Of a stretch of 54,803 nt of DNA, positions 8,760 to 44,783 are shown piece by piece. Positions within the stretch are counted from its first letter, which is position 1, and each line of letters starts with the position of its first letter. The stretch lies in contig REBX01000131.1 in assembly GCA_007692505.1 (NCBI GenBank), positions 1 through 54,803 on the forward strand. The letters are read 5' to 3'. The notes under the pieces are model-generated. The model did no database searches and was not told the origin of the DNA. It was given only the letters and a program-made list of their open reading frames with translations. The translations under genes and the position numbers were made by a program. Origin of the DNA: Gemmatimonadales bacterium (GTDB lineage Bacteria > Gemmatimonadota > Gemmatimonadetes > Longimicrobiales > Gaopeijiaceae).

Positions 8760-8855
8760 CTCGGAAAGACCCACGACCCCGAAGCCCCCACCGGAAGCCC
8801 GAAGTCTCCGCCGGGATCCAGGGGTTCGGAAGTCCGCGCCCCGATCCCCTGCGCG

Positions 8856-8949: not shown

Positions 8950-8962
8950 CACACAGAGGTTC

Positions 8963-10620: not shown

Positions 10621-10763
10621 CCACGAGGCGGCGCCCCCCGGCGGGCCGGGGACGGCAGACCGGGCCCGGTCGGGGACCGAAGACAGGACCGGACCGGGGA
10701 AGGCGAACCGGACCGGACCCATCCGGCTCCCGCATCCTGCGCCCCCTGGGAGGACCTCTCCCC

Positions 10764-10994
10764 GTGGTCGTGCAGACCGACGAGGGCGAGATCCCCGTGG
10801 CGGTGAAGGGCCGCCGCGGTCCGGTCCGCATCGAGGCGGTCCGGGAGACCTGGCAGATCGACGACGAGTGGTGGCGGGTGCCCATCTCCAGGGTCTACCA
10901 CTCCGTCGTCCTGGAGGGAGGCCGCCTGATCACCCTCTTCCGGGACCAAACCGCCAACCCGCCCCGCTGGTACTTCCAGCCCGGCGCCCGATGA
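10764..10994 (+). CDS. small conserved-looking Trp-rich protein downstream of imuB (76 aa; possibly the DUF6504-type family)
   Basis: GTG at 10764 is preceded by GGGAGGA 9 nt upstream. The sequence VVVQTDEGEIPVAVKGRRGPVRIEAVRETWQIDDEWWRVPISRVYHSVVLEGGRLITLFRDQTANPPRWYFQ has globular composition. The Pro/Gly/Arg-rich upstream part of ORF 8670..10994 does not. Confidence 0.6.
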   Translation: MVVQTDEGEIPVAVKGRRGPVRIEAVRETWQIDDEWWRVPISRVYHSVVLEGGRLITLFRDQTANPPRWYFQPGAR

Positions 10995-11230
10995 CGCGCC
11001 CGGCGACCCGATACGCGGCCGGCGGCCGATACGCGGCCGAAACCCCGACCGGCACCGGACCCGGGTCCGGCCCCCTCCCGGTACCTGGCCCGGCCCCCTC
11101 CGGGCACCGGACCCCTCCACCCGGCCTCCGGGTAGGCGTCGGACGCAAGGGTCCGGGGGATTCGGGGGACACCCGAACCCCGCACCCGCTCCATTCGAAC
11201 CGTTCCCCCCCACACACACCGGAGCCACCC

Positions 11231-17095: not shown

Positions 17096-19528
17096 GTGCC
17101 CCCTGTCCGCCCCGCCTGCCCCACGCCCGCCCCGTCCCTCCCGTCCGGGCCCCGCGGGGCACGGCTCGCTGCCCTGCCGGCCCTCCTGGCCGGAACCGTC
17201 CTCGTCCTCCTGTGGGCCCTCCTCCCGGCCGGTCTGGGGGCCCAGACGCCGGCCCCGCCCACCCCGGCCACCGGCGGCGCCCAGGGAGCCATCCCCACCC
17301 CCCTGGAGCACTTCGGGCACGAGCTGGGCGCAGAGGGCGAGCTGGCGAACTGGGACGACCTTCTGGCCTACTACGACCAGGTGGCGGCGGCCAGCGACCG
17401 GATCACCCTGGACACGCTGGGCACCTCCACCCTGGGGCGGCCCTTCGTGAAGATGATCATCACCAGCGAGGAGAACCACCGGAACCTGGACCGCTACCGG
17501 GAAATCCAGCACCGGCTGGCCGACCCCCGCACCATCGGGTCCGAGGAGGAGAAGCGGGCCCTCATGGAGGAGGGGCGCACCGTGGTCCTCACCACCTCCC
17601 ACATCCACTCCACCGAGGTGGGAGCCGGGCAGGTCCCGGCCCGCCTGGTCCACCGCCTGGCCACCACGGACGAGCCCGACCTCCTCCACGTCCTGGACGA
17701 GACGATTCTGGTCCTGGTGCCCTCGCTGAACCCCGACGGCACCCAGCTGGTGAGCGACTGGTGGCACGAGTGGAGGGACACCGAGTTCGAGGGCGCGCCC
17801 CTGAACCGCCTCTACCACCACTACATCGGGCACAACAACAACCGGGACTGGTTCTTCTTCGCCCAGAAGGAGACCCGGATGACGGTGAAGGGGGTCCACA
17901 ACACCTGGCGCCCCCAGATCGTCCACGACATCCACCAGATGGGCTCCGGGGCCGCCCGCTTCTTCGTGCCGCCCTACATCGACCCGGTGGAGCCCAACGT
18001 GGATCCCCTCCTGATCTCGGCGCTGAACTCCCTGGGCACCTGGATCCGGGCCGACATGACCCGGGAGGGCTTCGACGGCATCGTCACCGACGCCATCTTC
18101 GACATCTACACCCCGGCCCGGGCCTACATGCACTACCACGGCGGGGTGCGGATCCTGTCGGAGACGGCCAGTGCGAGCTGGGCCCGCCCCATCGAGATCG
18201 ACTTCGAGAACCTGGGGGGCACGGCGGACTACAACGCGCAGCAGATGAGCTCCAACTTCCCGTCGCCCTGGATGGGCGGGCGCTGGGGGCTGGACGACGT
18301 CCTGGACTACATGGAGGCGGCCTCCCTCACCATCCTGGTGAACGCCGCCCGGAACCGGGCTTTCTGGCTGGACAACTTCGTGCGGATCCACGAGCGGGCA
18401 GTGGCCGGGTGGGACACCTGGCCCGACGCCTGGGTGATCCCGGCAGGACAGGAGTACGACGCCGGCATGGAGCAGCTCCTCCGGGTCCTCACAACCGGCG
18501 ACGTGGAGGTCCACGTGGCGGAGGAGGGCTTCACGGTGGAGGGACGCCAGGTCCCCGAGGGCTCGTGGGTCGTCCCCATGCAGCAGCCCTACGCGGCCTT
18601 CGCCCAGACCATGCTGGAGCCCCAGGAGTACCCCGACCTCCGCCAGTACCCCGGCGGCCCGCCGGTGCGGCCCTACGACGCCACGGCCCACTCCCTCCCC
18701 CTCCTCTTCGGCATCGAGGCCTTCCCGGTGGAGGCCCTCCCCCAGGTGAGCCTCTCGGCGCCGGTGGAGCGCTTCACCGAGTTCTCCTTCCCCGTTCCCG
18801 CCCACCTCATGGGGGCCGACGCACCCCGCATCGGGCTCTACCGCTCGTACGCCGAGCCCATGCCCCAGGGGTGGACCCGCTGGCTCTTCGACCTGGCTGG
18901 GATCCGCTACACCCCCCTCCGGAATGACGACATCCGGGCCGGCGGGCTCGCCAATGACCTGGACGTGATCATCTTCCAGGACCAGGGGGCCAACTCCATC
19001 CGGAACGGCCACTCCCCGCAGCGGATGCCCGAGCCCTACGCCGGTGGGATCGGCGAGGAGGGCGAGGCGGCGCTCCGGGACTTCGTGGAGGCCGGGGGCC
19101 GCATCGTGGCCATCGACGCCGCCACGGACTGGGCCATCGACGCCTTCGACCTGGGGGTGGCCAATGCGGTGACGGACCTGCCCTCCCAGGACTTCTACAT
19201 CCCGGGCTCCATCCTCCACCTGGACCTGGACCCGGACCACGAGATCGCCCGACAGGTCCCCACCGAGAACTTCGCCTGGTACTGGCGGACGAGCCGGGCC
19301 TTCCAGGTGTCGGACCCCGATGCCCGCATCGTGGGCACGTACGGCGAGGGCGACCCCCGCCTGGCCGGCTGGGTGCTGGGCGAGGAGTTCGTGGCGGGCC
19401 TGCCCGCCCTGGTGGACGTGCCCATGGGCCAGGGGAACGTGATCCTCTTCGGGTTCCAGCCCAACTTCCGGGGGCAGACCGTGGGCTCGTGGCCCCTCTT
19501 CTTCAACGCCCTCCGCCGGAATGAGTGA
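17096..19528 (+). CDS. secreted M14-family metallocarboxypeptidase-like protein with a C-terminal GATase1-like domain
   Basis: GTG at 17096 lies 5 nt after GGAGG. Signal peptide is ALPALLAGTVLVLLWALLPAGLGAQ. Supporting blocks are TTSHIHSTEVGAGQ (HxxE zinc motif), PSLNPDG, NNNRDWFF and DIHQMG. The C-terminal DVIIFQDQG...GGRIVAIDAA is GATase1-like. The start is uncertain. Confidence 0.75.
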   Translation: MPPVRPACPTPAPSLPSGPRGARLAALPALLAGTVLVLLWALLPAGLGAQTPAPPTPATGGAQGAIPTPLEHFGHELGAEGELANWDDLLAYYDQVAAASDRITLDTLGTSTLGRPFVKMIITSEENHRNLDRYREIQHRLADPRTIGSEEEKRALMEEGRTVVLTTSHIHSTEVGAGQVPARLVHRLATTDEPDLLHVLDETILVLVPSLNPDGTQLVSDWWHEWRDTEFEGAPLNRLYHHYIGHNNNRDWFFFAQKETRMTVKGVHNTWRPQIVHDIHQMGSGAARFFVPPYIDPVEPNVDPLLISALNSLGTWIRADMTREGFDGIVTDAIFDIYTPARAYMHYHGGVRILSETASASWARPIEIDFENLGGTADYNAQQMSSNFPSPWMGGRWGLDDVLDYMEAASLTILVNAARNRAFWLDNFVRIHERAVAGWDTWPDAWVIPAGQEYDAGMEQLLRVLTTGDVEVHVAEEGFTVEGRQVPEGSWVVPMQQPYAAFAQTMLEPQEYPDLRQYPGGPPVRPYDATAHSLPLLFGIEAFPVEALPQVSLSAPVERFTEFSFPVPAHLMGADAPRIGLYRSYAEPMPQGWTRWLFDLAGIRYTPLRNDDIRAGGLANDLDVIIFQDQGANSIRNGHSPQRMPEPYAGGIGEEGEAALRDFVEAGGRIVAIDAATDWAIDAFDLGVANAVTDLPSQDFYIPGSILHLDLDPDHEIARQVPTENFAWYWRTSRAFQVSDPDARIVGTYGEGDPRLAGWVLGEEFVAGLPALVDVPMGQGNVILFGFQPNFRGQTVGSWPLFFNALRRNE

Positions 19529-23539: not shown

Positions 23540-26500
23540 ATGTCCCCCTCCACGTCCCCTTCCACCTCTCCCGGCACCCCCCCGTACGTGGAGCTCCATG
23601 CCCACTCCGCCTACTCGTTCCTGGACGGGGCCTCCCACCCGGAGGAGCTCGTCCTCCGGGCCCGGGAGCTGGGGCAGCCGGCCCTGGCGCTGACGGACCA
23701 CGACGGGCTCTACGGGAGCATGGAGTTCGCCCGGGCCGCCCTGGAGGCGGAGCTCCACCCCATCACCGGCGTGGAGCTCACGGTGGCCCTCCCCCCGGTG
23801 GCCCTCTCCCCCGGCGGCCGAGGGGCAGCAGGGACCGTCGGGGACCCGGACCAGCCCCCGGAGCGACAGACGGCCCACATCACCCTCCTGGCCGAGTCGT
23901 CGGAGGGGTACGGCAACCTCTCGGAGCTGGTCACCGAGTCCCACCGGCGGGGGCCTCGGGGCGCCCCAGCCCTCCCCCTGGAGGAGGTGCTGGACCCGGC
24001 CCGGACCGAGGGTCTCGTCCTCCTCACCGGGTGCCGCGACGGCCCCCTCCACCATGCCGCCCGGCGTTCGGTGGCCCGGGCCGAGGAGGTGGCCCGGGAG
24101 ATGGTGGAGGCCTTCGGGCCCGGGCAGGTCTACGTGGAGCTCCAGGAGAACCGGGTCCGGGGCGATGCCCGGCGCACCCGGCTCCTGGGAGCGCTGGCGG
24201 ACCGGATGGACCTCCCGGTGGTGGCCACGGGGAACGTCCACTACCACCGGCCCGGGCTCCACCGGCTCCAGGACGTCCTCACCGCCATCCGCCACCGGAC
24301 CACGCTGGACGGCGCCCACGCCCACCGACGGCCCAATGCCTGCTTCCACCTGGCCCCTCCGGAAGAGATGGCCCGGCGGTTCTCCAGCCGCCCCGACGCC
24401 CTCCGCTCCACCCTGGAGATCGCGGACCGCTGCCGGGGCTTCCACCTGGCCCGGGACCTGGACTACGTCTTCCCCGACTTCCGGGGGAGCGACCGGGGGT
24501 CCGCCATGGAGGTGCTCTCGGCCCTGACGGGGGCACGGCTGGAGGAGCGGTACGGCCCCGAGGATCGGGACCGGGCCCGGGCGCGTCTGGACGAGGAGCT
24601 CCGGCTGGTGGAGCACCACGGCCTGGCGGGCTTCTTCCTGGTCTACCGGGACATCATGGAGCTGGCCCGCGAGGTGGCCCACCGGGTGCGCCGGGGGTCT
24701 GCCCGGAGCCGGGCCGGCCTCCCGCCGGGCCGGGGGCGGGGGTCGTCCGTGTCCTCCATCATCTGTTACCTCGTCGGGCTCTCCCACGTGGACCCGGTGG
24801 AGTCGAACCTCTTCCTGGGCCGGTTCCTTAACGACGCCATGGGCTCTGTCCCCGACATCGACCTGGACTTCCCCCGAGAGATCCGGGAGGAGCTCATCCT
24901 GGAGGTCCACCGGCGATGGGGTCCGGACCACACCGGCCTGGTGGCCACCTTCCCCACGTACCGGCTCCGCTCGGCGGTGCGGGAAGTGGGCAAGGTGCTG
25001 GAGATCGCCCCCGGCGACCTGGAGAAGATCGCCCGGCTGGCGGAGCACCGGTCCGCCGGCGGGCTCCGGGAGGACCTGGAGCACATGCCCGAGTTCGCGG
25101 ACCGGGCCGAAAGCCGCCCCTGGCAGCACTTCCTGGAGCGGGTGGACGAGATCGCCGGGCTCCCCCGCCACATCTCCCAGCACGTGGGGGGGATGGTGAT
25201 CTCGAGCCGGCCCCTCCACCGCCTGGTCCCCCTGGAGCCCGCCGCCATGGAGGGCCGGACCCTCTGCCAGTGGGACAAGGACTCCTGCTCCGATGCGGGC
25301 TTCATCAAGATCGACTTCCTGGCCCTGGGCATGCTCTCCCTGGTGGAGGAGGCCGTGGACCTCATCGATGCCCGCCGACCCGCCGGGGAGGAGGCCCTGG
25401 ACCTCTCCCGCATCGACCTGGAGGACGAGGCGGTCCACGACCGCATCGCGGCAGGGGACACGGTGGGGATCTTCCAGGTGGAGAGCCGGGCCCAGATCCA
25501 GATGATCCGGAGGACCCGGCCCCGGACCCTCCCGGACCTGGCCATCCAGGTGGCGCTGGTCCGGCCGGGCCCCATCGTGGGCGGCGCGGTGAACCCCTAC
25601 GTCCGACGCCGGGAGGCACTCCGGAAGGACCCGACGTACCGGCCCCCGGTGGACCACCCCCTCCTGGAGGAGCCCCTGGCCGAGACCCTGGGGATCATCG
25701 TCTTCCAGGACCAGGTCCTCCAGGTCTGCCGGGCGCTGGCGGGGTTCACCGACGGCCAGGCGGAGAGCCTCCGGCGGGCCATGAGCCGGAAGCGGTCCGG
25801 CGAGGCCATGCGGGCCCACCGGGACGCCTTCCTGGAGGGCGCCCGGGCCCGGGGCGTCGACGAGGAGACGGCAAACCGGATCTTCCAGCAGGTGGTGGGC
25901 TTCTCCGAGTTCGGCTTCCCCAAGTCCCACGCGGCGGCCTTCGCGCTGCTGGCCTACCAGTCCGCCTGGCTCCGGCACCACTTCCCCACCGAGTACTACG
26001 TGGCCCTCTTCAACAACCAGCCCATGGGCTTCTACTCGCTGGACGCCCTGGGCCGCGATGCGGGCCGAAACGGGATCCGGATCCTCCCGCCCCACCTGGA
26101 ACACAGCCGGGTTCGCTGCACCCCCGAGGGCGACGACCTGAGGGTGGGGCTCGCTTTCGTCCGGGGGTGGGGCGAGGAGGTGGCCCGGCAGGTCGTGGCG
26201 GAGCGGGAGGCCCGGGGCCCCTTCCGGAGCCTGTCGGACTTCCTGGCCCGAACCCCCTCGGCCCTCCGGCGCCCGGCGGTGGAGAACCTGGTGTGGGTGG
26301 GCGGGCTGGACCACCTGGGGTTGGGGCGCCGCGAACTCCTCTGGCAGGCCGGGCTCTGGCTGGGCCCCGACGAGGAGCGGGGCCGGGGGCGGGGGCGGGC
26401 CGACGACCCCCAGCTCGCCCTGGGGCTCGGCGACCTGGAGGACCGGGCCACCCGGTTTCGCCCGGTGGACGACCGGGACGAGCTCGTGGCCGAGTACCGG

Positions 26501-27091
26501 ATGCTCCGCTTCTCCACCGCTACCCATCCCCTGGCCCTGGTGCGTGAGGAGCTCCCCCCCGGCCTGAGGACCTCCCGGGAACTCCCCGACACCCGGAACG
26601 GCACCCCGGTGACCCTGGCCGGCCTGGTGGTGGCCCGGCAGCGACCCCACACGGCCCGGGGCTACATCTTCATCCTGGTGGAGGACGAGCACGGCCACGT
26701 GAACGTCATCGTCCGACCGGAGGTCTACCGGGCCTGCCGGAACGCCGTGCGGCTGGAGCCCTTCCTGGAGGTGGAGGGGCGGCTCCAGAAGGACGGCGAC
26801 AGCATCAACGTCATCGCCACCGGGCTCCGGGCCCTCCGGACGGGACGGGGCACGGCGGCCTCCGGCAGCCTGCCCGACCCCATGCAGTACTGGCCCGACC
26901 CCAGGCGGGGTGGCGCCGGGGGGTCACCGGCCGGGCAAGGCGAGGCGGAGCAGGGCGAGGCGGTGGAGCGGGACGACGGGCCGGGCGATGGCGGGCGGCG
27001 CGCACCCAACGGCCCGCCGGCCAATGCCGACACTTGGCGCTTCCTCCGCACCCTGCGAGAGAGCCCCCCCGGCACGAAGAGCTGGGGGTGA
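23540..27091 (+). CDS. dnaE2: error-prone DNA polymerase III alpha subunit DnaE2 (ImuC)
   Basis: The PHP domain start is [44 protein letters not shown]. The polIII alpha core blocks [18 protein letters not shown] and FQVESRAQ are present. There is an OB-fold region but no tau/beta-binding C-terminal tail. Length is 1183 aa. Confidence 0.92.
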   Translation: [1183 protein letters not shown]

Positions 27092-27168
27092 GGGTGGTGT
27101 CGCGGTTGAAGTGTCGCCTGGGTCACCAGGGTCCCGTTCAGCACCGGCACAGGCGATGCGCGGTCGGG

Positions 27169-27245
27169 GAGCGAAGCCAGGGAGCGCGGCTCGATAGCGC
27201 GGGCCGGTAGCAAGGCCCGGGAGCGCAGCCAGGGAGCGCGGCTCG
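27169..27245. repeat. 25-bp direct repeat pair (GAGCGmAGCCAGGGAGCGCGGCTCG), 52 bp apart
   Basis: The copies at 27169-27193 and 27221-27245 are identical at 24 of 25 positions. Confidence 0.8.
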
Positions 27246-27250
27246 TGCCC

Positions 27251-27348
27251 GTGTAGGGATTTTCGCCACTATTCAGCATAACTCTACACGCGGTCCCGGC
27301 GCCCGGACCCTGTGCAGGATATTCCCCATAATTGACGAAAATCCTACA
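27251..27348 (-). repeat. twin hairpin element, copy B (reverse orientation relative to copies A and C)
   Basis: The reverse complement of 27312-27348 is TGTAGGATTTTcgtcaattatggggaATATCCTGCA. The reverse complement of 27251-27289 is GTGTAGAGTTATgctgaatagtggcgAAAATCCCTACAC. Spacing is ~60 bp, as in copies A and C. Confidence 0.85.
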
Positions 27349-27364
27349 CGCGCGGGCCGCCAGG

Positions 27365-27499
27365 CAGACCGCGTCCGGGAGGGGGGCGCCCCGCCAGGCA
27401 GACCGCGTCCGCGCGCCCCGCTAAGCAGACCGCGTCCGGGCCGGCTCGCGTCCGGGGGGGCCATCCCCGCAGACCGCGTCCGGGGGGGGCCATCCCCGC
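27365..27499. repeat. irregular tandem array of CAGACCGCGTCCG (x4) plus TCCGGGGGGGCCATCCCCGC (x2)
   Basis: Cores are at 27365, 27399, 27426 and 27470. The array abuts the stop codon of the MBL hydrolase gene. Confidence 0.8.
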
Positions 27500-28420
27500 T
27501 CACCCCTCCCGGCGGGCCAGGTGGAAGCGGACCCCGTCCCAGTCGCTGGCCGGGGAGAAGGCCTGGAAGTACCGCTCCGCCCGCTCCGTCCCCACATGGG
27601 CCGCGGCCACCTCCACCGCCTCCGCGTGGAACGCAGCCCGGTCCTCCTCCTCGGCCTCGGGTCCGGCCGCCATGGCCCGCCCCACCCGGGCCTCCATCTC
27701 CTCCAGGACCCGGGCCAGCTCCTCCCGGCGGCGGTCCAGCGAGTTCCGCTCCCCGTCCAGGACCCCGAAGTGGGCCAGGGCGAGCCCGTCGGGCCCCAGC
27801 CCGGCGTAGGTCTCCTCCAGGGTGTGGTGCCAGGCCGCCAGGTCCACCGCAGGGGGCGGTGTGGCCGGGTGGGTGGGCGCCTCAGGGTCCAGGATGATCC
27901 CCAGGCTGTCTCCGGCCAGGAGGATGCCGGCCCGCTCCGCCAGGTACGAGACGTGGTGGGCGATGTGCCCCGGGGAGTGGAAGAATCGCACATCCCGGAA
28001 CCCGCCGGCTTCCCCGGGGCGCCACGCCTGGATCCGCTCCGGCGGCACCGGTAGTACCGGGCCCCAGAGGCGGTCGTGGGCCTCCCCGAAGGTCCGGCGG
28101 GTGGAACGGACCAGGCGCTCCGGATCCGCCATGTGGGGGGCTCCGTCCGCGTGGACGTGCACCGTGACCCGGGGGTTCTCCCGGACCAGGTGCCCCGTGG
28201 CTCCGGCATGGTCCAGGTGGACATGGGTCAGGAGGATATGGCGGAGATCCGCCACGGCGAACCCCGCCTCCGCCAGTCCGGCCCGGAGGGCATCCAGGGA
28301 CGACGAAGGCCCCGGATCCACAACCACGGGATCCGGGGCCTCCAGTACATGCGCACAGATCGCCCCCTCTAGTCCATCGTGATGGAGGTCGAGGGGGACG
28401 ATCCGGTCGCTCCGGCTCAT
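27500..28420 (-). CDS. MBL-fold metallo-hydrolase
   Basis: LLTHVHLDHAG is the HxHxDH motif. Downstream His/Asp ligands are in SPGHIAHH and AGDSLG. Confidence 0.85.
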   Translation of the reverse strand: MSRSDRIVPLDLHHDGLEGAICAHVLEAPDPVVVDPGPSSSLDALRAGLAEAGFAVADLRHILLTHVHLDHAGATGHLVRENPRVTVHVHADGAPHMADPERLVRSTRRTFGEAHDRLWGPVLPVPPERIQAWRPGEAGGFRDVRFFHSPGHIAHHVSYLAERAGILLAGDSLGIILDPEAPTHPATPPPAVDLAAWHHTLEETYAGLGPDGLALAHFGVLDGERNSLDRRREELARVLEEMEARVGRAMAAGPEAEEEDRAAFHAEAVEVAAAHVGTERAERYFQAFSPASDWDGVRFHLARREG

Positions 28421-28433: not shown

Positions 28434-29741
28434 TCAGCGCTGCCCGATGGGCACGAACTGCCGCTCGCCCACGCCAGTGTAGACCTGCCGGGGACGGGCG
28501 ATCTTCTGCTCCTTGTCCTCCAGCATCTCCTCCCACTGGGCCAGCCAGCCCACCGTCCGGGGGATGGCGAAGAGAACGGGGAACATCTCCACCGGGAAGC
28601 CCATGGCCTGGTAGATGAGCCCCGAGTAGAAGTCCACGTTGGGGTAGAGGTTCCGCTCCACGAAGTAGTCCTCCTGGAGCGCGATCTTCTCCAGCTCCAG
28701 GGCGATCTCCAGCAGCGGGTTCTTCCCCGTCACCTCGAAGACGTCGTGGGCCGCCTCCTTGATGATGCTGGCCCGGGGGTCGTACGCCTTGTAGACCCGG
28801 TGCCCGAAGCCCATCAGCCGCCGCTCGCCCTTCCGGACGCTCTCCATGAAGGCCGGGATGTTCTTCACATCGCCGATCTCGGTGAGCATGCGGAGGACGG
28901 CCTCGTTCGCCCCGCCGTGGAGCGGCCCGTAGAGGGCAGCCATGGCCCCCGAGAGGGAGCAGTACGGATCCGCCTGGGCGCTCCCGATGACCCGCATGGT
29001 GGTCGTCGAACAGTTCTGCTCGTGATCCGCATGGAGGATGAAGAGGATGTCCAGCGCCCGCTCCAGGACCGGGTTGCTCTCGTACTTCGAGACCCCGATC
29101 CGGAAGAGCATGTTCAGGAAGTTGCCCGTGTAGGACAGCTCGTTTTCCGGGTAGATGTAGGGCAGCCCCTGGAAGTGCCGGTAGGAGAACGCCGCCAGGG
29201 TGGGCATCTTGGCCACCAGGCGGACGATCTGGATCCACCGGTTGTCCGGGTCGTGGATGTCCTTCGCTTCCGGATAGAACGTGGAGAGCGCCGCCACCGA
29301 CGAGATCATGATGCCCATGGCGTGGGCATCGTAGCGGAAGCCGTTCAGCAGCTTCGTGATGTTCTCGTGGATGTACGTGTGGTACGTGACGTCGTGGACG
29401 AACTGGTCCAGCTCGTTGGAGGAGGGGAGGTCCCCTTTCAGGAGGAGGTAGGCCACCTCCAGGAAGTTGGACTTCTCCGCCAGCTGCTCGATGGGATACC
29501 CGCGGTAGCGCAGGATCCCCCGGGCACCGTCGATCTCGGTGACCGTGCTCCGGGTGGAGGCGGTGTTCGTGAAGGCGGGATCGTACGTCATCATCCCGAA
29601 GTCGCCGTCGTCCACCTTGATCTGGCGGAAGTCCATGGCGCGGATGACGTCTCCCTCGTGGATGTCGATCTCGTAGTCGCGACCCGTACGGTTGTCGCGA
29701 ACGCTCAGCGTGTTCCGGGGCTCGGTCCCGCTGTCTGCCAT
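28434..29741 (-). CDS. gltA: citrate synthase (type II)
   Basis: Full-length match to citrate synthase hallmarks: ILRYRGYPIEQLAE, LHADHEQNCSTTT, GPLHGGANE, GFGHRVYK, PNVDFYSG. Confidence 0.95.
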   Translation of the reverse strand: MADSGTEPRNTLSVRDNRTGRDYEIDIHEGDVIRAMDFRQIKVDDGDFGMMTYDPAFTNTASTRSTVTEIDGARGILRYRGYPIEQLAEKSNFLEVAYLLLKGDLPSSNELDQFVHDVTYHTYIHENITKLLNGFRYDAHAMGIMISSVAALSTFYPEAKDIHDPDNRWIQIVRLVAKMPTLAAFSYRHFQGLPYIYPENELSYTGNFLNMLFRIGVSKYESNPVLERALDILFILHADHEQNCSTTTMRVIGSAQADPYCSLSGAMAALYGPLHGGANEAVLRMLTEIGDVKNIPAFMESVRKGERRLMGFGHRVYKAYDPRASIIKEAAHDVFEVTGKNPLLEIALELEKIALQEDYFVERNLYPNVDFYSGLIYQAMGFPVEMFPVLFAIPRTVGWLAQWEEMLEDKEQKIARPRQVYTGVGERQFVPIGQR

Positions 29742-30003: not shown

Positions 30004-31299
30004 TCAGGGCACGAAGGGCTCCACGGGACGGAAGATCCCCGTCTTCGTCATGTCGCGGCGGAGGGGGAAGCGCTGGAAGGCCCGGGGCAGGTGCACCTCC
30101 TCCAGGCGGTCGAACCGAATCTGCCCCCACGCTGCCCGCTCGATCCGGGCACTCAGGAGCACCTCGTCGGCATCGGCCCCTGTGGCCGGGTCCACGGCCT
30201 GGGTGAAGCCCGTCACCACCACCTCCTCCACCCCGGGCAGCGCGTGGAAGGCCTCGCCCACCGCGCGAAAGCAGAACCCGTGCACGTGGTCCCGATACTC
30301 CTCCCGCCTCTGCCGATCCGAACGCTCCCGCACCAGGATCCGGAGCTCCCGCTTCGCCGGCCGGGCCTCCTCCCGGGGAAACGCGTCCCGGGGGGCCAGG
30401 TCCACGTCGAGCCAGAGCCGGATCCCCCCATCCCCTCCGGGCTCAACCTCAAGTCCGACTTCGGTTTCCCGGGGCCAGGGCACATCGGCGAAGTGGTGCT
30501 CCAGCGCCTCCGCCACCGCCTCCTCGTCTCCGGCCCGAGCCGCCTCCATGGCCCCAAGCCGCTCCGATTCCAGCGCCTCGTGGGCCTGCCGGGCCTCCTC
30601 CCAGGCCTCCCGCTCCCGCCGGGCCGAATCCCGAACCCGGGCCGCCGCCTCCTCCCGGGCCTCCCGCCGCCCCGAAAGTACCCCCTCCACCAGCCGACCC
30701 AGCACCCCGGGGCCCTCCGGAAGCACCGGCTCCGCAGGCGGGGGCTCGGGGAACGGACGCGCACGCAGCGCCAGCGGGGGGTCCGGCGCGGGAGTCTCCA
30801 GGTGGAGCGCCAGGACCTGGTCCATGTCCCGATTCCAGTGCCTGCAGAGCTCCGCCATGGTCTCCCGGATCCCCGCCTCGTCCGCCCGTCGCACCTCTGC
30901 GAGCTCGGTCTCGGAGAGGGGAGTGCCATCTTCCCACAGGAACGTCAGATGCCCCGAATCTTCTGCCTGGATGCGGAGGAGGACGCCGCCGGAATCCGCC
31001 TCCGGGCCCCCGCCTGCGCCCCCCGCCGTTCGTGGGGGGGAGGCCGAAGCGGCCCCGGGATCACCTGCGGCGACCCGGGACCCGGCGGGGCCGCCTCGTC
31101 GATTCCCCTGCCCGGGCAGCCGGACCTTCTTCCGGTAGTGGAGCCCCGTACCCGGGAGCCCGGCATGCATGTGGGGGCCCGACGGCCCCACGCTGACGCT
31201 CCCGCCCCTCCCTCCCAGGGAGAGGCCGGGCCCCGTCTTGCTCAGGTTCAGGCGAATGCCGGGCAGGATCCGGATCCTGCGTCTGAATCTCCATCCCAT
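30004..31299 (-). CDS. DUF4236-domain protein with a Glu/Arg/Ala-rich central region and an unassigned C-terminal domain
   Basis: ATG at 31299 gives MGWRFRRRIRILPGIRLNLSKTGPGLSLGGRGGSVSVGPSGPHMHAGLPGTGLHYRKK, the DUF4236 signature as I recall it. A GGGAGGGGGAGG Shine-Dalgarno lies upstream. The ORF track start at 31449 lies inside tandem repeats. Confidence 0.65.
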   Translation of the reverse strand: MGWRFRRRIRILPGIRLNLSKTGPGLSLGGRGGSVSVGPSGPHMHAGLPGTGLHYRKKVRLPGQGNRRGGPAGSRVAAGDPGAASASPPRTAGGAGGGPEADSGGVLLRIQAEDSGHLTFLWEDGTPLSETELAEVRRADEAGIRETMAELCRHWNRDMDQVLALHLETPAPDPPLALRARPFPEPPPAEPVLPEGPGVLGRLVEGVLSGRREAREEAAARVRDSARREREAWEEARQAHEALESERLGAMEAARAGDEEAVAEALEHHFADVPWPRETEVGLEVEPGGDGGIRLWLDVDLAPRDAFPREEARPAKRELRILVRERSDRQRREEYRDHVHGFCFRAVGEAFHALPGVEEVVVTGFTQAVDPATGADADEVLLSARIERAAWGQIRFDRLEEVHLPRAFQRFPLRRDMTKTGIFRPVEPFVP

Positions 31300-31340
31300 G
31301 CCCGGAAGATGGCCTCCCCCTCCCACCACGGGCCAGCCTT

Positions 31341-31410
31341 GAATGCAGGGCACCATTTGATGCAGGGCACCCTTTGCTGCGGGGCACCCCTGGATACGGG
31401 GCACCCCGGG
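31341..31410. repeat. 17-18-bp tandem repeat x4 with core TGCrGGGCACC, directly upstream of the DUF4236 gene
   Basis: The four units are gaaTGCAGGGCACCattt, gaTGCAGGGCACCctttg, cTGCGGGGCACCcctg and gaTACGGGGCACCccggg. The TGCAGGG core is shared with the hairpin stems. Confidence 0.8.
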
Positions 31411-31511
31411 CCCCGACCATCGCCACCCTCCACCCGCTGCCTCCTGCACCTGCCACCTCCGTCCGGCACGAGGACGCTACTCCGGCAAGGAACTGGCCCG
31501 TGTCCCCTCCC

Positions 31512-31599
31512 CTGCCACCGGCTGTGCAGATCCCTGCCACCGGCTGTGCAGATCCCGGCCACCAGCTGTGCACATTCCTGCCAAAGGCTGTGCCCATCC
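31512..31599. repeat. 22-bp tandem repeat x4 (CTGCCACCGGCTGTGCAGATCC), abutting the AT-rich twin box
   Basis: Units are 31512-31533, 31534-31555 (identical to the first), 31556-31577 and 31578-31599 (the last two degenerate). Confidence 0.88.
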
Positions 31600-31604
31600 C
31601 TGGA

Positions 31605-31670
31605 CCAAATATATCAAAAACTCATAACCCCGACGGACAACCAGGGTACTATATTAAAAACTAATATCTG
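31605..31670 (+). repeat. AT-rich twin box; homologous to 8560-8625
   Basis: ccaaatatatcaaaaactcataacc and ggtactatattaaaaactaatatctgg are colinear with the copy A boxes. In both loci a short GC hairpin and the block AGGGGTTCGGAArTCCGC follow. Confidence 0.8.
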
Positions 31671-31745
31671 GCAGACCACCTTGGTCTCCGCCCCCCCAAC
31701 CTCGACGCCGGTCCGCGAACCAGGGGTTCGGAAATCCGCCCTGCA

Positions 31746-31840
31746 TGCAGGGTTTTGGTCAATAATGGGCAATATCCTGCAATGAGTCAGGCCGTAGTCC
31801 GCGCGTGCAGGGTTTCGTTCAATAATGGGTAAAACCCACA
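31746..31840 (+). repeat. twin hairpin element, copy C
   Basis: H1 (31746-31781) is TGCAGGGTTTTggtcaataatgggcaATATCCTGCA. H2 (31806-31840) is TGCAGGGTTTcgttcaataatgggtAAAACCCACA. Spacing is 60 bp. Confidence 0.9.
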
Positions 31841-31868
31841 CAAACGGAGCGGGGCTTTCCGCCGGGTA

Positions 31869-32035
31869 GGAGCTGCGGAAGCGGGGGGCCGGAGACCGGG
31901 GGGCTGTGAGGCCCGGGAGCTGCGGAAGCGGGGGCCCCGAGACCGGGAGCTGCGAACCCGGGGCGGCCAGACCGAGGGCCTCGAGACGGGAAGCCTTGAG
32001 ACCGGGGGCTGCGCAACCGGGGGCTGCTGGCCCCG
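31869..32035. repeat. degenerate ~30-bp tandem repeats (GGGAGCTGCGGAAGCGGGGGCCsGAGACC-like)
   Basis: GGAGCTGCGGAAGCGGGG occurs at 31870 and 31916. There is a related unit at 31945. GAGACC recurs at 31892, 31939 and 32008. Confidence 0.7.
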
Positions 32036-32143
32036 TACACCACGAGCCCCCAACGTCCAACCGGCCCGGACCGCCCCCCGAACGTGCTGTCCGGGAGGCG
32101 GCGCCGGACCGGCGCCAGGAATACCGCTGCCCTGCAGGGGTGA

Positions 32144-33326: not shown

Positions 33327-35684
33327 TCAGCGGCCGGGTCGGAGGGCCAGGCGAACCCCGAAGGTCCGGCCCGGCAGGGGGTAGTCCACCAGGAGGGAGG
33401 CGGTCTGGTCCAGGAGGTTCTCCACCGACAGGTCGAGCTGCAGGTGGACGCGGCCCAGGGGGTCCGACTCCAGCGTGCGGCTGGAGGAGAGGCCTGCGCT
33501 CCAGCGGGTGTGGGCGTCCAGGCGGTTCACGTCGGAGCCGGCCTGCGAGCGCCGGCTCCCGATGCGGCGGACCCGGGTGTCCAGGTCCACGGGGCCCATG
33601 CGGAGGCGGGCGTCCACGGTGCCGGTGTGGAGGGGGCGGTACGCGACCTGCCCCGAGAGGGCCCGCCCCGTGTACTCCACCCCCTGCCGGTCCAGGCGAC
33701 CCCGCATGCGGAGCCGACCGCTCGGCGTCTCCAGGGCCAGGGAGGCAGATGCGCCCTCCCGCCGGACGTCGAAGTTCTCCGGCCGCCAGACGAAGCGGTG
33801 GTCCGGGAGCCAGAGGATCATCCCGTCCACGTCGGCCCGCCAGGCCGCGAGTTCGGCGGTGAGGAGGAGCCCGGCGAGCCCCTGCTCGTGGCCCAGACCC
33901 GCCTCCACCTCGCCCCGCACCCGCTCGGGCTCCAGGGTGGGGTTCGAGCGGGCCAGGACGCCCTCCTGGAAGTAGAGGTCCGAGAGGGAGGGAGCAGAGA
34001 ACGCCCGACCGGTGCGGAGCCAGCCCCGGGTCCCGCCGGCCACCAGCTCCAGCTGCGCCGCCGGAGAGACGGCGACCCCGCTCACCAGGTCGTGGCGGTC
34101 CAGCCGTCCGCCCAGGATCCAGCGGAGCTCACCCCGCCCCCCGGGCCCGGCCCGTCGGCCCTCCAGATCGGACCAGAGGGCGAGCTCGCCGATGGCATCG
34201 GGCGCGTTTGGGCCCAGGCCATCGGCCCGGATCCGGCTGGAGGCCAGCTGCACGCCGGCGGCCAACTCCATCCGCCCCAGAAGAGCGGAGGAGCCCATCT
34301 CCGGGAGGCGAAGGGACGTCTCGGCGTCGGCCCCCAGCCGGAGGACCCGGCTCCGGTCCGCGTAGGCCGGACCCAGGGGAGGGTCGGGGTCCGCAAAGCG
34401 GCCCTCGTGGGCCTCGGCGGCGCCGCCCAGGGCCCAGCCCAGGAGGTGGGCTCCCCCGTCTCCGGTCCACCGGGCCCGCAGCCCCAGCCGCTCCTGCACC
34501 TGGGTCCCGGTGGCCGAGGGCTGGACGATGGTGCCCGGGGTCCCCCGCTCCACCCTCTGGCCATGAGCCCGGATGCGGGCCTCCGTGGTCCGGCCGTCCC
34601 GGACGAGTTCGGTCTCGCCCCGGATCCGGCTGACCCCGGCGTTGCCGCGGACCGCCGTGCCTCCCCCCCGGACGTCGGGCCGGTCGTAGCGGAAATTCCC
34701 TTCCGCCTGCATCCACTCGCCCCCGACCCCCAGGCGCCAGGGGCCCGGGAGGCCGGGAATGGAGCCGGATTCCAGCTGGACGGACTCCTCTCCCAGCGAG
34801 CCCGCGGCCACGTTCGCCCGCCAGTCCCGGGCCCCGGCACTCCGGGTGGTGATGAGGATCGTGCCGGCGAGGGCGCCGCTCCCGTGGCGGCTGGACCCGG
34901 CGCCGGGGATTACGACCACGTCCTCCACAGAGGCCAGGTCCACCTGGGAGAGGTCGGCCTCCCCGGTAAGGGCAGAGTTGAGGGGGACCCCGTCCACCAG
35001 GACCAGGACCTGGTCCCCGGCGGAGCCCCGGATGGAGGGAACGGAAGGTGCACCGGGGCCGCCCCGGCGCTCCACCAGGACCCCGGGGGCCTCCTCCAGG
35101 AGGTCGGCCAGGGTACGCACGGAGGCCCCGGCCTCCGCAGGCCGGAGTCGGATGGAGCCCGCCGTGGGAAGGGCCTCGGTCTCGGGAGCGGCCCGGACCT
35201 GCAGGCCGGCCAGCACCACGGGATCGGGGTGGAGGCGGATGTCGATGCGGGTGCGGGAGCCGTTCTCCACCACGGCCTCGCTACGCAGGGGAAGCCAGCC
35301 GGTCCCCGACGCCCGGAGCTGGACCCGACCGGGCTCCAGCCCCCGGAAGCGGGCCACCCCGGAGGCATCGGTGCGCCCCGTGTCCCCCGATCCTTCCACC
35401 GTCACAAGGACCCCGGCCACCGGGCGTCCGTCGGAGGCATCCAGGACCCGAACCTCCAGGGTGGCCGGGACCTGGGCCTGGGCCCGGGAGGACGCCCCCG
35501 GGACGGCAGGGAGCTGGGTCCACGCAGGGAGGACGGGGCAGGCCAGCAGGATGGCCAGGAGGAAGGCGCCGGCGGAGGGCAGGCAACGGGCGCCCCGAAA
35601 GGAGGCCCGGCCGGATCGGGCAGGTACCGGCGAACGGAAGACGACGGGCAGGCGCGGGGGCCTGCTCCGGCGTCCGGGAGCCAT
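33327..35684 (-). CDS. btuB: TonB-dependent receptor, probable corrinoid/cobalamin outer-membrane transporter
   Basis: ATG at 35684 gives MAPGRRS. A CarbopepD_reg-like domain (LEVRVLDASDGRPVAGVLVTVEG) is followed by a plug (VRTLADLLEEAPGVLVERRGGPGAPSVPSIRGSAGDQVLVLVDGVPLN). The protein ends in a terminal beta-strand, FGVRLALRPGR. The btuB assignment rests on the upstream cobalamin riboswitch. Confidence 0.75.
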   Translation of the reverse strand: MAPGRRSRPPRLPVVFRSPVPARSGRASFRGARCLPSAGAFLLAILLACPVLPAWTQLPAVPGASSRAQAQVPATLEVRVLDASDGRPVAGVLVTVEGSGDTGRTDASGVARFRGLEPGRVQLRASGTGWLPLRSEAVVENGSRTRIDIRLHPDPVVLAGLQVRAAPETEALPTAGSIRLRPAEAGASVRTLADLLEEAPGVLVERRGGPGAPSVPSIRGSAGDQVLVLVDGVPLNSALTGEADLSQVDLASVEDVVVIPGAGSSRHGSGALAGTILITTRSAGARDWRANVAAGSLGEESVQLESGSIPGLPGPWRLGVGGEWMQAEGNFRYDRPDVRGGGTAVRGNAGVSRIRGETELVRDGRTTEARIRAHGQRVERGTPGTIVQPSATGTQVQERLGLRARWTGDGGAHLLGWALGGAAEAHEGRFADPDPPLGPAYADRSRVLRLGADAETSLRLPEMGSSALLGRMELAAGVQLASSRIRADGLGPNAPDAIGELALWSDLEGRRAGPGGRGELRWILGGRLDRHDLVSGVAVSPAAQLELVAGGTRGWLRTGRAFSAPSLSDLYFQEGVLARSNPTLEPERVRGEVEAGLGHEQGLAGLLLTAELAAWRADVDGMILWLPDHRFVWRPENFDVRREGASASLALETPSGRLRMRGRLDRQGVEYTGRALSGQVAYRPLHTGTVDARLRMGPVDLDTRVRRIGSRRSQAGSDVNRLDAHTRWSAGLSSSRTLESDPLGRVHLQLDLSVENLLDQTASLLVDYPLPGRTFGVRLALRPGR

Positions 35685-35747
35685 GGAGGCTCGCGGAGTC
35701 AGGAGTCCCAAGTGTCCCCTCCCTCGAGGGTGTCCGGGTGCTGGAGG

Positions 35748-35930
35748 GACGAGGAGGAGGTCTCCTGGCTCGAGGCAGTCACACTCGCCTTCCCGGAGCC
35801 CGCAGGCTCCAGTGGCATTCCTTCGAGTGGACCATCCGGAACGGCTCTCCCGGGGGAGGGCCATTCCGCACCTCTGACAGTGGCGGGGCCGCGCCGGATT
35901 CTCACCGGACTTCCGTGTTCCGCCTCGTCG
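35748..35930 (-). ncRNA. cobalamin (B12) riboswitch
   Basis: The minus strand reads GACGAGGcggaacacGGAAgtccGGTGagAAtCCggcGCgGcCCCGCCACTGTcag ... GCCACTGgagcctgcgggctccGGGAAGGCgag ... gAGCCAGGAGACCTcctCCTCGTC. This contains the conserved core, the GCCACTG...GGGAAGGC element, the B12 box and a closing P1 (GACGAGG/CCTCGTC). Confidence 0.9.
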
Positions 35931-35956
35931 CTTGTTTGTGCCTGAACGGTTAGGCA

Positions 35957-35982
35957 CCGGGGCCGAGCGGCGCAAGCCCCGG
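35957..35982 (-). terminator. GC hairpin after the DUF1232 gene (candidate terminator)
   Basis: CCGGGGC-cgagcggcgcaa-GCCCCGG forms a 7-bp stem. No U-tract is present. Confidence 0.35.
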
Positions 35983-43214: not shown

Positions 43215-43244
43215 CTTTACAACTCCATTCGGAGATTTAATTTC
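43215..43244 (+). promoter_or_regulatory. candidate promoter in an AT-rich patch upstream of the 43326 gene
   Basis: TTTACA, 16-nt spacer, TAATTT, lying within ccactttacaactccattcggagatttaatttctgg. This is the only AT-rich stretch in the intergenic region. Confidence 0.3.
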
Positions 43245-43325
43245 TGGATCAGTTGGTGATTTCCGTGTCCCCTGACCGGGTTGCGGGGGACCGTTGACCG
43301 TCCCCACCACCTCCGGAGGGTTTCC

Positions 43326-44783
43326 ATGATTCGGTCTTCACTGCTTTGCCAGCTCCTTCCCTCCCTGGCCGTTCCTGCCACCCTCCTCCTGGCCGCAGCG
43401 CTGCTGGCCCCCCACGAGGCCGGGGCCCAGACGATCCGGGGCACCGTGGTATCCGCCGAAGACGGTCGACCCGTCTCCCAGGCCCGGATCCAGGTGGTCC
43501 CGGCAGACGAGGCCGGAGCGGCGACACCCGTGGCTTCCACCACCACGGGTCGAGACGGCTCCTTTTCGGTCTGGGCCCGGGAGCCCGGCGTGTACCGGCT
43601 CCAGGTGGAGTCGCTGGGCTTCGACGCCCTCCTCTCCCGGGAGTTCGTCCTCCAGGCCAACGAGGTCCGCTCCGTGGAGCTCCGCCTGGAGGTGGACGCC
43701 GTGGAGCTCTCCGCCGTGGAGGTCACCGGCCGCCGCTGGGAGCCCGACTTCATGGGAGACGTCCGACGTCGCCAGGCGCTGGGGATGGGCACGGTCTACA
43801 CCCGGGAGGACCTGGAGGCCCGCTCCGGAGCCCGGATCCAGGACATCCTGCAGGGCACCCCGGGTCTACGGGTGGTGAACGAGCCCTACGGGGGCCGGGT
43901 GGGCGTCGAGTCGAACCGGGGGCTGGCAGGCGCCTTGGGCCAGCCGTGCTTCTCCTCCATCTACGTGGACGGCTGGCGGGTCTTCGACGTGGGGATCCAC
44001 GCCGACGACGAAGGGGTTCCCCGGGCCGACCTCGTGGACCACGTGCGGGAGGTCCTGGAAGGTGGGGCGGACCAGGTGGAGGCCATCGAGGTCTACCGCG
44101 GGGTGGCCGCCCTTCCAGCCGAGTTCGGGGGGAGCTCCTCGCAGTGCGGGGTGGTGGCCGTCTGGACCCGCCGGGGCCAGGGCCCGGACACCTTCGGAAG
44201 CGGGGTCACCGGGCTTCAGTACGCCGTCCGCCTGGCTCTGGGTGCAAGCAGCCACGGGCTGTCCGGCGACGCCGCCCCCCGGCACGCCACCGGTCTGGAT
44301 GCCGCCGCCCACTGGTCCATCCGACCCCGGATCTCCCTGGGTGCACACCTCCGTCACGGGCAGCACGCCATGTCCGCCGAAACCCTCTCGGAGGTGGTGG
44401 AGGGGATGCCCGCCCTGGGCCCCGTCCGCTCCGGTCCCCTCCGCATGACGACGCTGGCCGTGGAGCCCCGCGTTACTCCCTTCCCCGAATGGCGCATCCA
44501 GCCCGTCCTCCAGGGGCGACTCCTGCTGGCTCGCCGGAGCTTCGAAATGCGGCAGGTGGGGGGAGAGGGCTCCGCGGACCCCTCATCCCTCGGGGTGGGC
44601 CTGGGCGCAGGCGTCGCGGCCGCCGTTTCGCTGCCTGGGAGGCTGGGCCTGGAAGCGGGGCTGGTCCGGGACCGGATCTCCTTCGAGGCCTACCCGGATC
44701 TGACCGAGGCCTCGCAGTCCCGGTGGAGTTCGACCGGGGCGCAGATTCGCCTGACCTGGGACGTGGCCCCGGTCCGTCCCTGA
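43326..44783 (+). CDS. outer-membrane protein with CarboxypepD_reg-like and TonB-receptor plug-like domains (too short for a full 22-strand receptor)
   Basis: GGAGGG Shine-Dalgarno lies upstream. Signal peptide is MIRSSLLCQLLPSLAVPATLLLAAALLAPHEAGAQ. CarboxypepD_reg block: IRGTVVSAEDGRPVSQARIQV...DGSFSVWAREPGVYRLQV. Plug-like block: RIQDILQGTPGLRV. Confidence 0.65.
   Translation: MIRSSLLCQLLPSLAVPATLLLAAALLAPHEAGAQTIRGTVVSAEDGRPVSQARIQVVPADEAGAATPVASTTTGRDGSFSVWAREPGVYRLQVESLGFDALLSREFVLQANEVRSVELRLEVDAVELSAVEVTGRRWEPDFMGDVRRRQALGMGTVYTREDLEARSGARIQDILQGTPGLRVVNEPYGGRVGVESNRGLAGALGQPCFSSIYVDGWRVFDVGIHADDEGVPRADLVDHVREVLEGGADQVEAIEVYRGVAALPAEFGGSSSQCGVVAVWTRRGQGPDTFGSGVTGLQYAVRLALGASSHGLSGDAAPRHATGLDAAAHWSIRPRISLGAHLRHGQHAMSAETLSEVVEGMPALGPVRSGPLRMTTLAVEPRVTPFPEWRIQPVLQGRLLLARRSFEMRQVGGEGSADPSSLGVGLGAGVAAAVSLPGRLGLEAGLVRDRISFEAYPDLTEASQSRWSSTGAQIRLTWDVAPVRP

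Follow-up and report, generated by a model that had tools for sequence, protein, structure and literature searches.

The DNA analysed here (the window) is the whole 54,803-nucleotide contig REBX01000131.1 of a Gemmatimonadales bacterium (assembly GCA_007692505.1, forward strand), and the subject is a twin-hairpin element found in its three largest true intergenic gaps: 8158–9303 (locus A), 31300–32143 (locus B) and 27092–27499 (locus C). Loci A (8.3–9.1 kb) and B (31.3–32.0 kb) are two copies of a lineage-restricted, non-coding intergenic module, and their likeness is far beyond chance. Locus C carries a third, more diverged copy of the twin hairpins (27251–27349, minus strand). All six hairpins fall within these gaps, and searches with an nhmmer profile and a covariance model run with filters off found nothing else of the kind in the window. 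The copy counts cover only these 54.8 kb of the genome.

The contig, with a GC content of 71.5%, is chromosomal Gemmatimonadales DNA. Its citrate synthase (28434–29741, minus strand) is 85–89% identical to proteins labelled 'MAG: Gemmatimonadales', and its other genes are likewise chromosomal (dnaE, an ImuB-like polymerase of the IMS family, UDG, TonB-dependent receptors, histidine kinases and metH, besides regulators of the TetR and WYL kinds). The likeness of loci A and B was first described in a reading made from the letters alone (the sequence-only reading), which also remarked that no rep, par, integrase or transposase gene lies nearby. That remark holds for the window: none of these, nor any cas gene, occurs among the scanned open reading frames (ORFs) with coding signal, and several scanned ORFs match no family.

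The module shared by loci A and B

The shared parts of loci A and B are colinear and lie on the same strand: an AT-rich twin box, a short GC hairpin, a conserved block that contributes to a small hairpin (H0), and the twin hairpins (H1 and H2), with tandem arrays on both sides. Such a colinear architecture was the central claim of the sequence-only reading, and every part that it listed was found at or next to the position it gave (Tandem Repeats Finder (TRF), pattern searches, BLAST and alignments).

The AT boxes, each of 18 bp, follow the pattern ATAYANNAAAANCTAATA, which has exactly four sites in the window when up to two mismatches are allowed (8564, 8604, 31609 and 31649), where shuffled sequences lead one to expect 0.00. 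The two boxes of a pair are exactly 40 bp apart in both loci and enclose a CCGWCGG palindrome at an equal offset (+21). In locus A the twin box (8564–8621, plus strand) is made up of box 1 (8564–8581), CCGTCGG (8585–8591) and box 2 (8604–8621), and in locus B (31609–31666, plus strand) of box 1 (31609–31626), CCGACGG (31630–31636) and box 2 (31649–31666). Stretches in which at least 12 of 16 bases are A or T number seven in the 54.8 kb, namely the four AT boxes, two of the six hairpin loops and a site at 43227, in agreement with the earlier remark that the boxes are highly unusual in such DNA and matched in spacing. Three such stretches occur in about 78 kb of related Gemmatimonadales DNA, each of them just upstream of a gene.

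Two further AT-rich sites were noted. The one at 43227–43251 of the window (ATTCGGAGATTTAATTTCTGGATCA) precedes a TonB-dependent receptor gene (43326–44783) by about 75 bp and may be a regulator site. The other is a 42-bp segment (TATTAATAATACATACTCATTATCATAAAC) at 18988–19029 of a related Gemmatimonadales contig (L025), upstream of cobW and near a TonB receptor gene, which may be a box of the Zur/Fur (metalloregulator) type. The rare AT-rich boxes of this clade tend to be regulatory sites. When the boxes of the module were read as sites for sigma-54, IHF, CtrA or Fur, or as Bacteroidetes-type -7/-33 promoters, none of these readings was conserved by eye across the four boxes.

After box 2 a short GC hairpin occupies the same position in both loci with a different sequence: in locus A it is GGCGG...CCGCC, as read from the sequence (8627–8646, plus strand), and in locus B it is GGCAGACC...GGTCT..GCC, together with a C-rich left arm GGTCTCCGCCCCCCC (31670–31697, plus strand) that is complementary to 31883–31908 (26 nt, 77%). 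The block that follows, CCAGGGGTTCGGAArTCCGC (8818–8837 and 31720–31739), agrees between the loci at 19 of its 20 bases; its search pattern matches perfectly at 8820 and 31722, and GTCTCCGCC stands upstream of it in locus A (8804–8812) and in locus B alike. The block is the 5' half of H0, in which CAGGG(G)...(C)CCCTG closes CGGAARTCCG. As plus-strand features, CCAGGGGTTCGGAAGTCCGC (8818–8851) forms H0 in locus A, with CAGGGG...CCCCTG closing CGGAAGTCCG, and CCAGGGGTTCGGAAATCCGC (31720–31743) does so in locus B, with CAGGG...CCCTG. The distance from AT box 2 to the block is 200 bp in locus A and 56 bp in locus B, because a C-rich array of 33–38-bp units (8686–8787, plus strand; TRF), present only in locus A, intervenes there.

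The twin hairpins come next, on the plus strand; their pattern has four matches in the window and an expectation of 0 in shuffles. In locus A, H1 (8856–8891) pairs TGCAGGGTTT with AAACCCTGCA and has an inner GUUC/GGGC stem and an AAUAAU loop; a linker (8892–8913) containing the palindrome CCGGCGCCGG leads to H2 (8914–8950, GTGCAGGGTTTT...AAAACCCGCAC). In locus B, H1 (31746–31781) has a G.U pair and a U.U mismatch relative to locus A, and H2 lies at 31805–31841. A further small hairpin, H3, closes the series: GGTTCGGAAAACC in locus A (8958–8970) and GCGGGGCTTTCCGC in locus B (31849–31862).

The flanks of these parts are tandem arrays, all given here on the plus strand. The left array of locus A (8326–8388) has a 21-bp unit, GGCCACCTGGACACCTTTGCT, in about three copies (TRF 8326–8382, period 21, 2.7 copies) and lies 170–230 bp upstream of the minus-strand gene that starts at 8157. 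Locus B has two arrays on its left side: one of 17-bp units (ATGCAGGGCACCCTTTG, 3.8 copies, 31343–31406), just upstream of the start of a minus-strand DUF4236 gene at 31299, and one of 22-bp units (CCCTGCCACCGGCTGTGCACAT, 4.2 copies by TRF, 31510–31602), which abuts AT box 1; the 21-bp array of locus A is 175 bp away from its boxes. On the right, H3 of locus A runs into a G-rich 36-bp array of 4.1 copies (the whole feature spanning 8958–9108; TRF 8962–9108, period 36), and H3 of locus B is followed by G-rich 15/29-bp arrays (31849–32035 with H3; TRF 31882–32027, periods 15, 16 and 29) that hold the right arm GGGGGGCCGGAGACC (31883–31897).

The AT boxes, the block and the hairpins are 90–97% identical between the two loci, and the DNA between and around them has diverged beyond alignment. 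Gapped alignment and BLAST find significant similarity in these three parts only, and the arrays do not align. Thus, similarity extends beyond the hairpins, and the description of a conserved core with variable repeat arms is borne out. Such a pattern of conservation points to either constraint or gene conversion acting on the boxes, the block and the hairpins.

GC-frame plots reveal no coding signal across 8158–9303 or 31300–32143. A minus-strand gene starts 407 bp (locus A, 8157) or 310 bp (locus B, 31299) to the left of AT box 1, within the range of 300–430 bp quoted earlier. The two left-hand genes (7399–8157 and the DUF4236 gene, 30004–31299) are unrelated to each other, and so are the right-hand neighbours: the ImuB-like (IMS family) gene (9304–10620) lies directly downstream of locus A, and the array side of locus B ends at a convergent gene end. 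The start given by the gene caller for the DUF4236 gene (450 aa) would overlap the 17-bp array, and M51 (31299) fits the homologues better.

Each of the hairpins of loci A and B can be read as a six-codon ORF, (A/G)TG CAG GGT TTY GKT CAA TAR, that is MQGF(V/G)Q-stop (8853–8876, 8912–8935, 31743–31766 and 31803–31826), the copies differing by one synonymous change, one V/G change and TAA versus TAG. A leader peptide was considered and rejected: the ORFs are without a Shine-Dalgarno sequence although nearby genes have one, and both copies in locus C are broken (GTG TAG). These ORFs are probably a coincidence.

The twin-hairpin unit and its strand

Locus C is not mentioned in the sequence-only reading; a pattern search allowing three mismatches missed it as well, and it surfaced while the arrays of other gaps were being checked. 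On the minus strand, its first hairpin runs from 27349 to 27312 and its second from 27289 to 27251, with a spacing of 60 nt. The locus has neither AT boxes nor block, nor any AT-rich part at all. It lies between two convergent gene ends, those of dnaE (23540–27091, plus strand) and of a Lactamase_B gene (stop at 27500, minus strand), and the unit is 150 nt behind the Lactamase_B stop codon, on the same strand as that gene. Locus C adjoins the gene of the DNA polymerase III alpha subunit and locus A an ImuB-like gene, and locus B adjoins neither; there is no evidence in these three settings of a link between the element and DNA-repair genes.

The core common to the three loci is a twin unit of about 105 nt, composed of two imperfect palindromes of 36–38 nt in direct orientation, 59–60 nt apart. 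H1 and H2 are joined by a small GC hairpin in a GC-rich linker of 22–23 nt, which is similar in loci A and C (CCGGCGCCGG-type); H2 is closed by GTG(C)/(G)CAC, and H3 follows in loci A and B. In each of the three loci the hairpins have position-specific 3' ends, CCTGCA(A/C) (CCTGCAATG/CCTGCACAG) on the first and CCC(R/TA)CAC (CCCRCACA/CCCTACAC) on the second. These ends, together with the constant spacing, imply that the twin unit is ancestral and has been copied as a whole. The resemblance of the three loci dies away within about 10 nt of the hairpin edges, and no terminal or bounding inverted repeats and no target duplications were seen around the three units.

G.U pairs make H1 and H2, loops included, quasi-self-complementary, which leaves the unit two possible folds: a pair of hairpins, or a single helix of about 50 bp. 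In locus A (z = -5.9), in locus C (z = -6.3) and in the three-way consensus, the long helix is the fold of minimum free energy. The pairing depends on the strand. If the element strand is taken as plus in loci A and B and minus in locus C, 75% of the hairpin cells form standard pairs on that strand, compared with 62% on the opposite one. At one inner pair all six copies have U.G, and at a second pair three of them do; on the opposite strand neither column pairs standardly in any copy. Compensatory series occur at two pairs (G-C / G.U / A-U at one and G-C / G.U / C-G at the other), and the unit of locus C folds at -54.0 kcal/mol on the element strand (z = -6.3) versus -38.6 kcal/mol on the other, a gap of about 15 kcal/mol. 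This asymmetry favours RNA on the element strand or, less well, single-stranded DNA.

Arrays flank the unit of locus C too (27158–27511), with 13/39-bp units at 27158–27245 and 27–34-bp units containing GCAGACCGCGTCCG at 27349–27511. Altogether, 10 of the 13 strongest arrays of the window lie in the three loci, which make up 4.4% of it (P ~6e-12). This enrichment indicates that the link between arrays and hairpins is real, although the array sequence is not conserved. The 21-mer of locus A is weakly, and about equally, similar to the 17-mer (shared core GGRCACC(C)TTTG) and to the 22-mer of locus B. The 36-mer units of locus A contain a block-like GGWWCGGAAAACCGC, and the 17-mer unit of locus B (ATGCAGGGCACC) resembles the 5' arm of the hairpins. 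The arrays would be fast-evolving local duplications, built in part from pieces of the module, rather than a conserved functional part of it. Apart from those of the three loci, notable intergenic arrays lie only at 10642–10700 (24-bp units) and 10981–11039 (19-bp units); they flank a 77-codon ORF (10764–10994) downstream of the ImuB-like gene and are without the hairpin element.

Occurrence beyond the window

The element is private to its lineage, as far as public data can show. Rfam 15 has no match for the loci at its gathering threshold, and relaxing the threshold to E <= 10 gave only noise in loci A and B. Exact-pattern scans with the hairpin motif of 185,579 species genomes, the JGI metagenomes and IMG/VR, collections that do not include the contig of the window itself, returned single chance matches only, in unrelated genomes of 33–64% GC; a double match in a Peribacteria MAG (4760–4920 of its contig, L012) proved to be an unrelated 64-bp tandem repeat in DNA of 43% GC. 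The module of locus B has no blastn match among plasmids and phages. Open-frame translations of the unit, used to pick up spurious ORFs annotated over further copies, gave no candidate in a word-index search against proteins, and an exhaustive HMMER protein search returned one irrelevant repetitive protein (E = 8e-4). No promoter, small RNA or repeat family of Gemmatimonadota in the libraries searched matched the element.

About 86 kb of related Gemmatimonadales DNA were searched with the nhmmer profile and the covariance model, again with filters off, and contain no copy. The relatives at 85–89% citrate-synthase identity keep the pair of citrate synthase and Lactamase_B genes, and the element is missing there; in those at 87–89% synteny is broken, so they offer no clean empty site. 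The orthologues of the DUF4236 gene are only 48% identical, and the short gaps upstream of them are without the module; below these best matches, the named homologues belong mostly to Halomonas and Vreelandella (Gammaproteobacteria), at 35–41%. To judge from these protein comparisons, the DUF4236 gene, and perhaps the whole B segment, may have been horizontally acquired or may be evolving fast.

The sequence-only reading would have taken the absence of the module from all related genomes as a sign of coincidence. The relatives sampled do lack it, but because the evidence within the genome is strong, their lack of the element is read instead as the signature of a young, lineage-specific repeat family.

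Readings of the element

Our tentative preference, held with rather less than even confidence, is that loci A, B and C carry a dispersed twin-hairpin repeat, private to its lineage, that functions as RNA and has the AT twin box as its promoter wherever no neighbouring gene transcribes into it. The unit behaves as a dispersed repeat of the REP, ERIC, BOX or PATE kind and would be read as RNA on the written strand of loci A and B. Loci A and B, whose upstream neighbour diverges, have the AT boxes, and locus C, with a same-strand gene ending 150 nt upstream, does not. Boxes confined to units without a same-strand gene upstream are most simply explained if transcription of the unit is required and the twin box provides a promoter for it. 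In loci A and B, then, with no gene predicted to be transcribed toward the unit, the twin box would act as a promoter of the unit, perhaps a bidirectional and regulated one that also serves the diverging left-hand gene 310–407 bp away; the predicted transcript would carry H0 (the block), H1, H2 and H3. The unit of locus C would be transcribed by read-through from the same-strand gene, which would explain its missing AT boxes. The helix of about 50 bp would be the kind of structure that stabilises or processes transcripts.

That the element belongs among the dispersed intergenic palindromic repeats (REP, ERIC, BOX, PATE), a class that the sequence-only reading did not consider, is suggested by the inverted and partial third copy, and equally by the strictly intergenic location and the lineage restriction. 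Comparable elements are the pneumococcal BOX (boxA, variable boxB, boxC) and the enterobacterial ERIC, which also combine conserved modules with a varying number of tandem units, are intergenic, occur in partial copies and are predicted to form long RNA stem-loops, ERIC being a transcribed imperfect palindrome of about 127 bp. They have no known sequence similarity to the module, whose tandem units are locus-specific and whose AT twin box is without a known counterpart. REP, ERIC and PATE elements are transcribed and some act as RNA, so an RNA reading and a mobile-DNA reading are not exclusive. Multicopy small-RNA genes are comparable in their conserved upstream box and structured body, unconserved flanks, paralogous copies and strand-biased pairing; the module differs from them in having no recognisable terminator, no conserved promoter match, no box in locus C and no Rfam family.

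Earlier it had been proposed that the layout recalls either a replication, partition or recombination site or the promoter and body of a non-coding RNA locus. The second proposal fits the strand-dependent pairing, the context of the AT boxes and the missing coding signal, and the first has become weak. The host uses Shine-Dalgarno sequences and sigma-70-like promoters of the form TTGnnn-N17-TAnnnn, and the boxes contain plus-strand -10-like hexamers (TATAYN: TATACT, TATACA, TATATC and TATATT). Transcription, a promoter function for the boxes and activity as RNA are inferred, and several observations speak against them. A sigma-70-like -35/-10 match (TTTACC-16-TATACT, 8543–8570, overlapping box 1) is found in locus A and not in locus B. 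The boxes are direct repeats with -10-like hexamers on both strands, so that a putative promoter could face either way; on the minus strand the hexamers are TATATT, at the left margin of box 1 in each locus, and TATAGC / TATAGT, at box 2. No intrinsic terminator was found after H2 in locus A or B. Covariation among the six hairpins is not above shuffle controls (157 of 500 shuffles reach the observed value), the folding stability of units A and B is without strand preference, and the first hairpin of locus C has a G.U pair on the opposite strand. Finally, stems and loops are conserved in sequence and not just in pairing, which recognition by a protein or a transposase fits equally well.

This last observation leads to the main rival, a mobile element acting at the DNA level, which we rate only somewhat below the preferred reading. 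The hairpins would then be single-stranded-DNA structures recognised by a trans-acting HUH (Y1) transposase. The element proper would be the twin unit with its roughly 105 bp, either REP/REPIN-like and mobilised by a RAYT protein or a minimal PATE of IS200/IS605-type descent; the AT boxes and the block would come from a longer variant or from the promoter region of the host, and the arrays would be by-products of hairpin-induced replication slippage. The ends of IS200/IS605 elements and of gene-less PATEs carry two similar subterminal palindromes on one strand, and PATEs are reported often to encode structured RNAs, the omega RNAs (PMC10055086, PMC7290912). The module is like them in its two similar imperfect palindromes on one strand, direct and with position-specific differences kept in three loci, and in having no gene inside. 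Its copies occur in both orientations, strictly between genes and in a single lineage; locus C is a bare twin unit; stem and loop sequences are conserved; and the lack of terminal inverted repeats and target duplications is what the IS200/IS605-type family predicts.

Against such mobility stands, in the first place, the lack of a Y1 transposase, TnpA, TnpB, RAYT or other transposase among the scanned ORFs of the 55 kb. The module hairpins are only about 22 nt apart, unlike those of the IS200/IS605 and PATE kind, and the AT boxes and block lie outside a minimal element: a unit of 105 bp leaves a conserved AT twin box and block, 30–290 bp upstream of H1, unexplained. Three copies are also too few for defining the ends of the element and its target and cleavage motifs. 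With REP, BIME and REPIN sequences, which together with RAYT systems are closely akin to the IS200/IS605 kind, the module shares short imperfect intergenic palindromes in both orientations, doublets of fixed spacing, lineage specificity, a site in the 3' region between convergent genes (locus C) and a doublet that can fold as one long hairpin. REPINs are inverted doublets, however, and the doublet here is direct in all three loci; it still folds as a long hairpin because each unit is itself palindromic. Further differences are the long (16 nt), conserved and AT-rich loops, and the AT twin box and small hairpin added in two copies. In favour of the mobile reading, the hairpin heads, GTGTAG in locus C and GTGCAG in loci A and B, recall the GT[AG]G head of REPs.

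Less probable again, and in our judgement improbable, is a purely regulatory DNA, in which the AT twin box with CCGWCGG would be the promoter or operator of the diverging left-hand genes (7399–8157 and DUF4236, 30004–31299), the left arrays would lie in leader regions, and the hairpins would be double-stranded sites for a dimeric regulator or a nucleoid protein. The boxes do have minus-strand -10-like hexamers, with the conserved CCGWCGG where a -35 element would be, and a minus-strand gene start 310–407 bp to the left in both loci; moreover, the AT-rich segments found in a relative (L025) all lie just upstream of genes, and the palindromes are conserved at the sequence level. But the left-hand genes are unrelated, as are the right-hand neighbours, and locus C, between two convergent gene ends, has nothing to regulate. 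Half-sites of 10 bp that stand 16 bp apart with a conserved asymmetric spacer would be unusual for an operator, a leader of 300–400 nt is long, and a pairing asymmetry that depends on G.U pairs is meaningless for double-stranded DNA.

A bolder RNA reading, to which we give still less credence, takes the module for an autonomous non-coding RNA gene that represents a new class and is confined to the lineage; its AT twin-box promoter would drive a four-hairpin RNA switching between two folds. Such an RNA might be an orphan guide or scaffold, omega-RNA-like and PATE-borne, for a nuclease or transposase encoded elsewhere. The hairpins might, in addition, nucleate the expansion of tandem arrays around each copy.

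An iteron-type origin, or a partition or site-specific recombination site whose initiator or recombinase is encoded elsewhere, is very improbable. The AT boxes of locus B stand directly between a 22-bp array of 4.2 copies and GC-rich structured DNA, an order like that of iteron plasmid origins and a layout that resembles plasmid oriV regions. Two full copies and a partial one, however, lie within 25 kb among citrate synthase, dnaE and metH, the full modules 23 kb apart; the window has no Rep, Par or recombinase gene and the loci no DnaA boxes; the 'iterons' differ completely between the loci and in locus A are 175 bp from the boxes; locus C is without an AT-rich part; and there is no plasmid or phage match. 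Coincidence, in the sense of low-complexity GC-rich repeats around two unrelated hairpin pairs, is refuted, for even though the arrays do not align between the loci and also occur in the gap at 10981–11039, the box, block and hairpin patterns have an expectation of about 0 in shuffles and yet are colinear with identical spacings of 40 and 59–60 bp, and 10 of 13 strong arrays lie within 4.4% of the window; the structural claim of a module is therefore supported.

Other candidates were tried and rejected. A CRISPR mini-array would have 'spacers' of 22–23 nt that are similar in loci A and C, always exactly two repeats, and no cas gene in the window. A type III toxin-antitoxin system (ToxI-like) was dismissed, since the 36-bp array of locus A has only 76% matches and is followed by the ImuB-like gene, and the array of locus B by a convergent gene end. 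For a tRNA-like reading of the block (GGTTCGGAA), ARAGORN found nothing, and a proper T-arm is missing. As to a sponge of the CsrB/RsmZ type, GGA is not enriched in locus B and is marginal in locus A relative to dinucleotide shuffles, and the loops carry UGGG. A minus-strand intrinsic terminator, made of the GC hairpin and the T-rich box, was flagged at one of the four boxes, with the T-run 8–9 nt from the stem. The notion that a whole locus is one giant palindrome meets outer-arm complementarity that is modest in locus A (z = 3.4), weak in locus B (z = 1.7) and absent in locus C.

The module is thus regarded as a new family within a known kind, that of dispersed intergenic hairpin repeats or small structured RNA loci, with two unusual traits, an AT-rich twin box in DNA of 71% GC and different tandem arrays around every copy. 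Soils harbour Gemmatimonadota in abundance, and the genetics of these bacteria has hardly been studied. For this phylum the module offers a candidate promoter or regulatory box that stands out from the GC-rich background and a candidate structured RNA, or transposase substrate. Should it act as RNA, it would rank with the earliest regulatory RNAs put forward for these bacteria, and should it be mobile, it would be a useful strain marker. The different arrays around each copy could help to explain how minisatellites grow from hairpins in the intergenic DNA of bacteria. The evidence consists of three copies in one contig, and its practical weight is modest for now.

Outside the three loci, the sole Rfam match of the window at the gathering threshold is a cobalamin riboswitch (35738–35943, minus strand; 58.8 bits, E = 4e-12), behind which one of the TonB-dependent receptor genes sits (33327–35975, minus strand). 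Immediately upstream is its likely promoter, TTGCGC-N17-TAACCG, which shows the use of sigma-70-like promoters in this organism.

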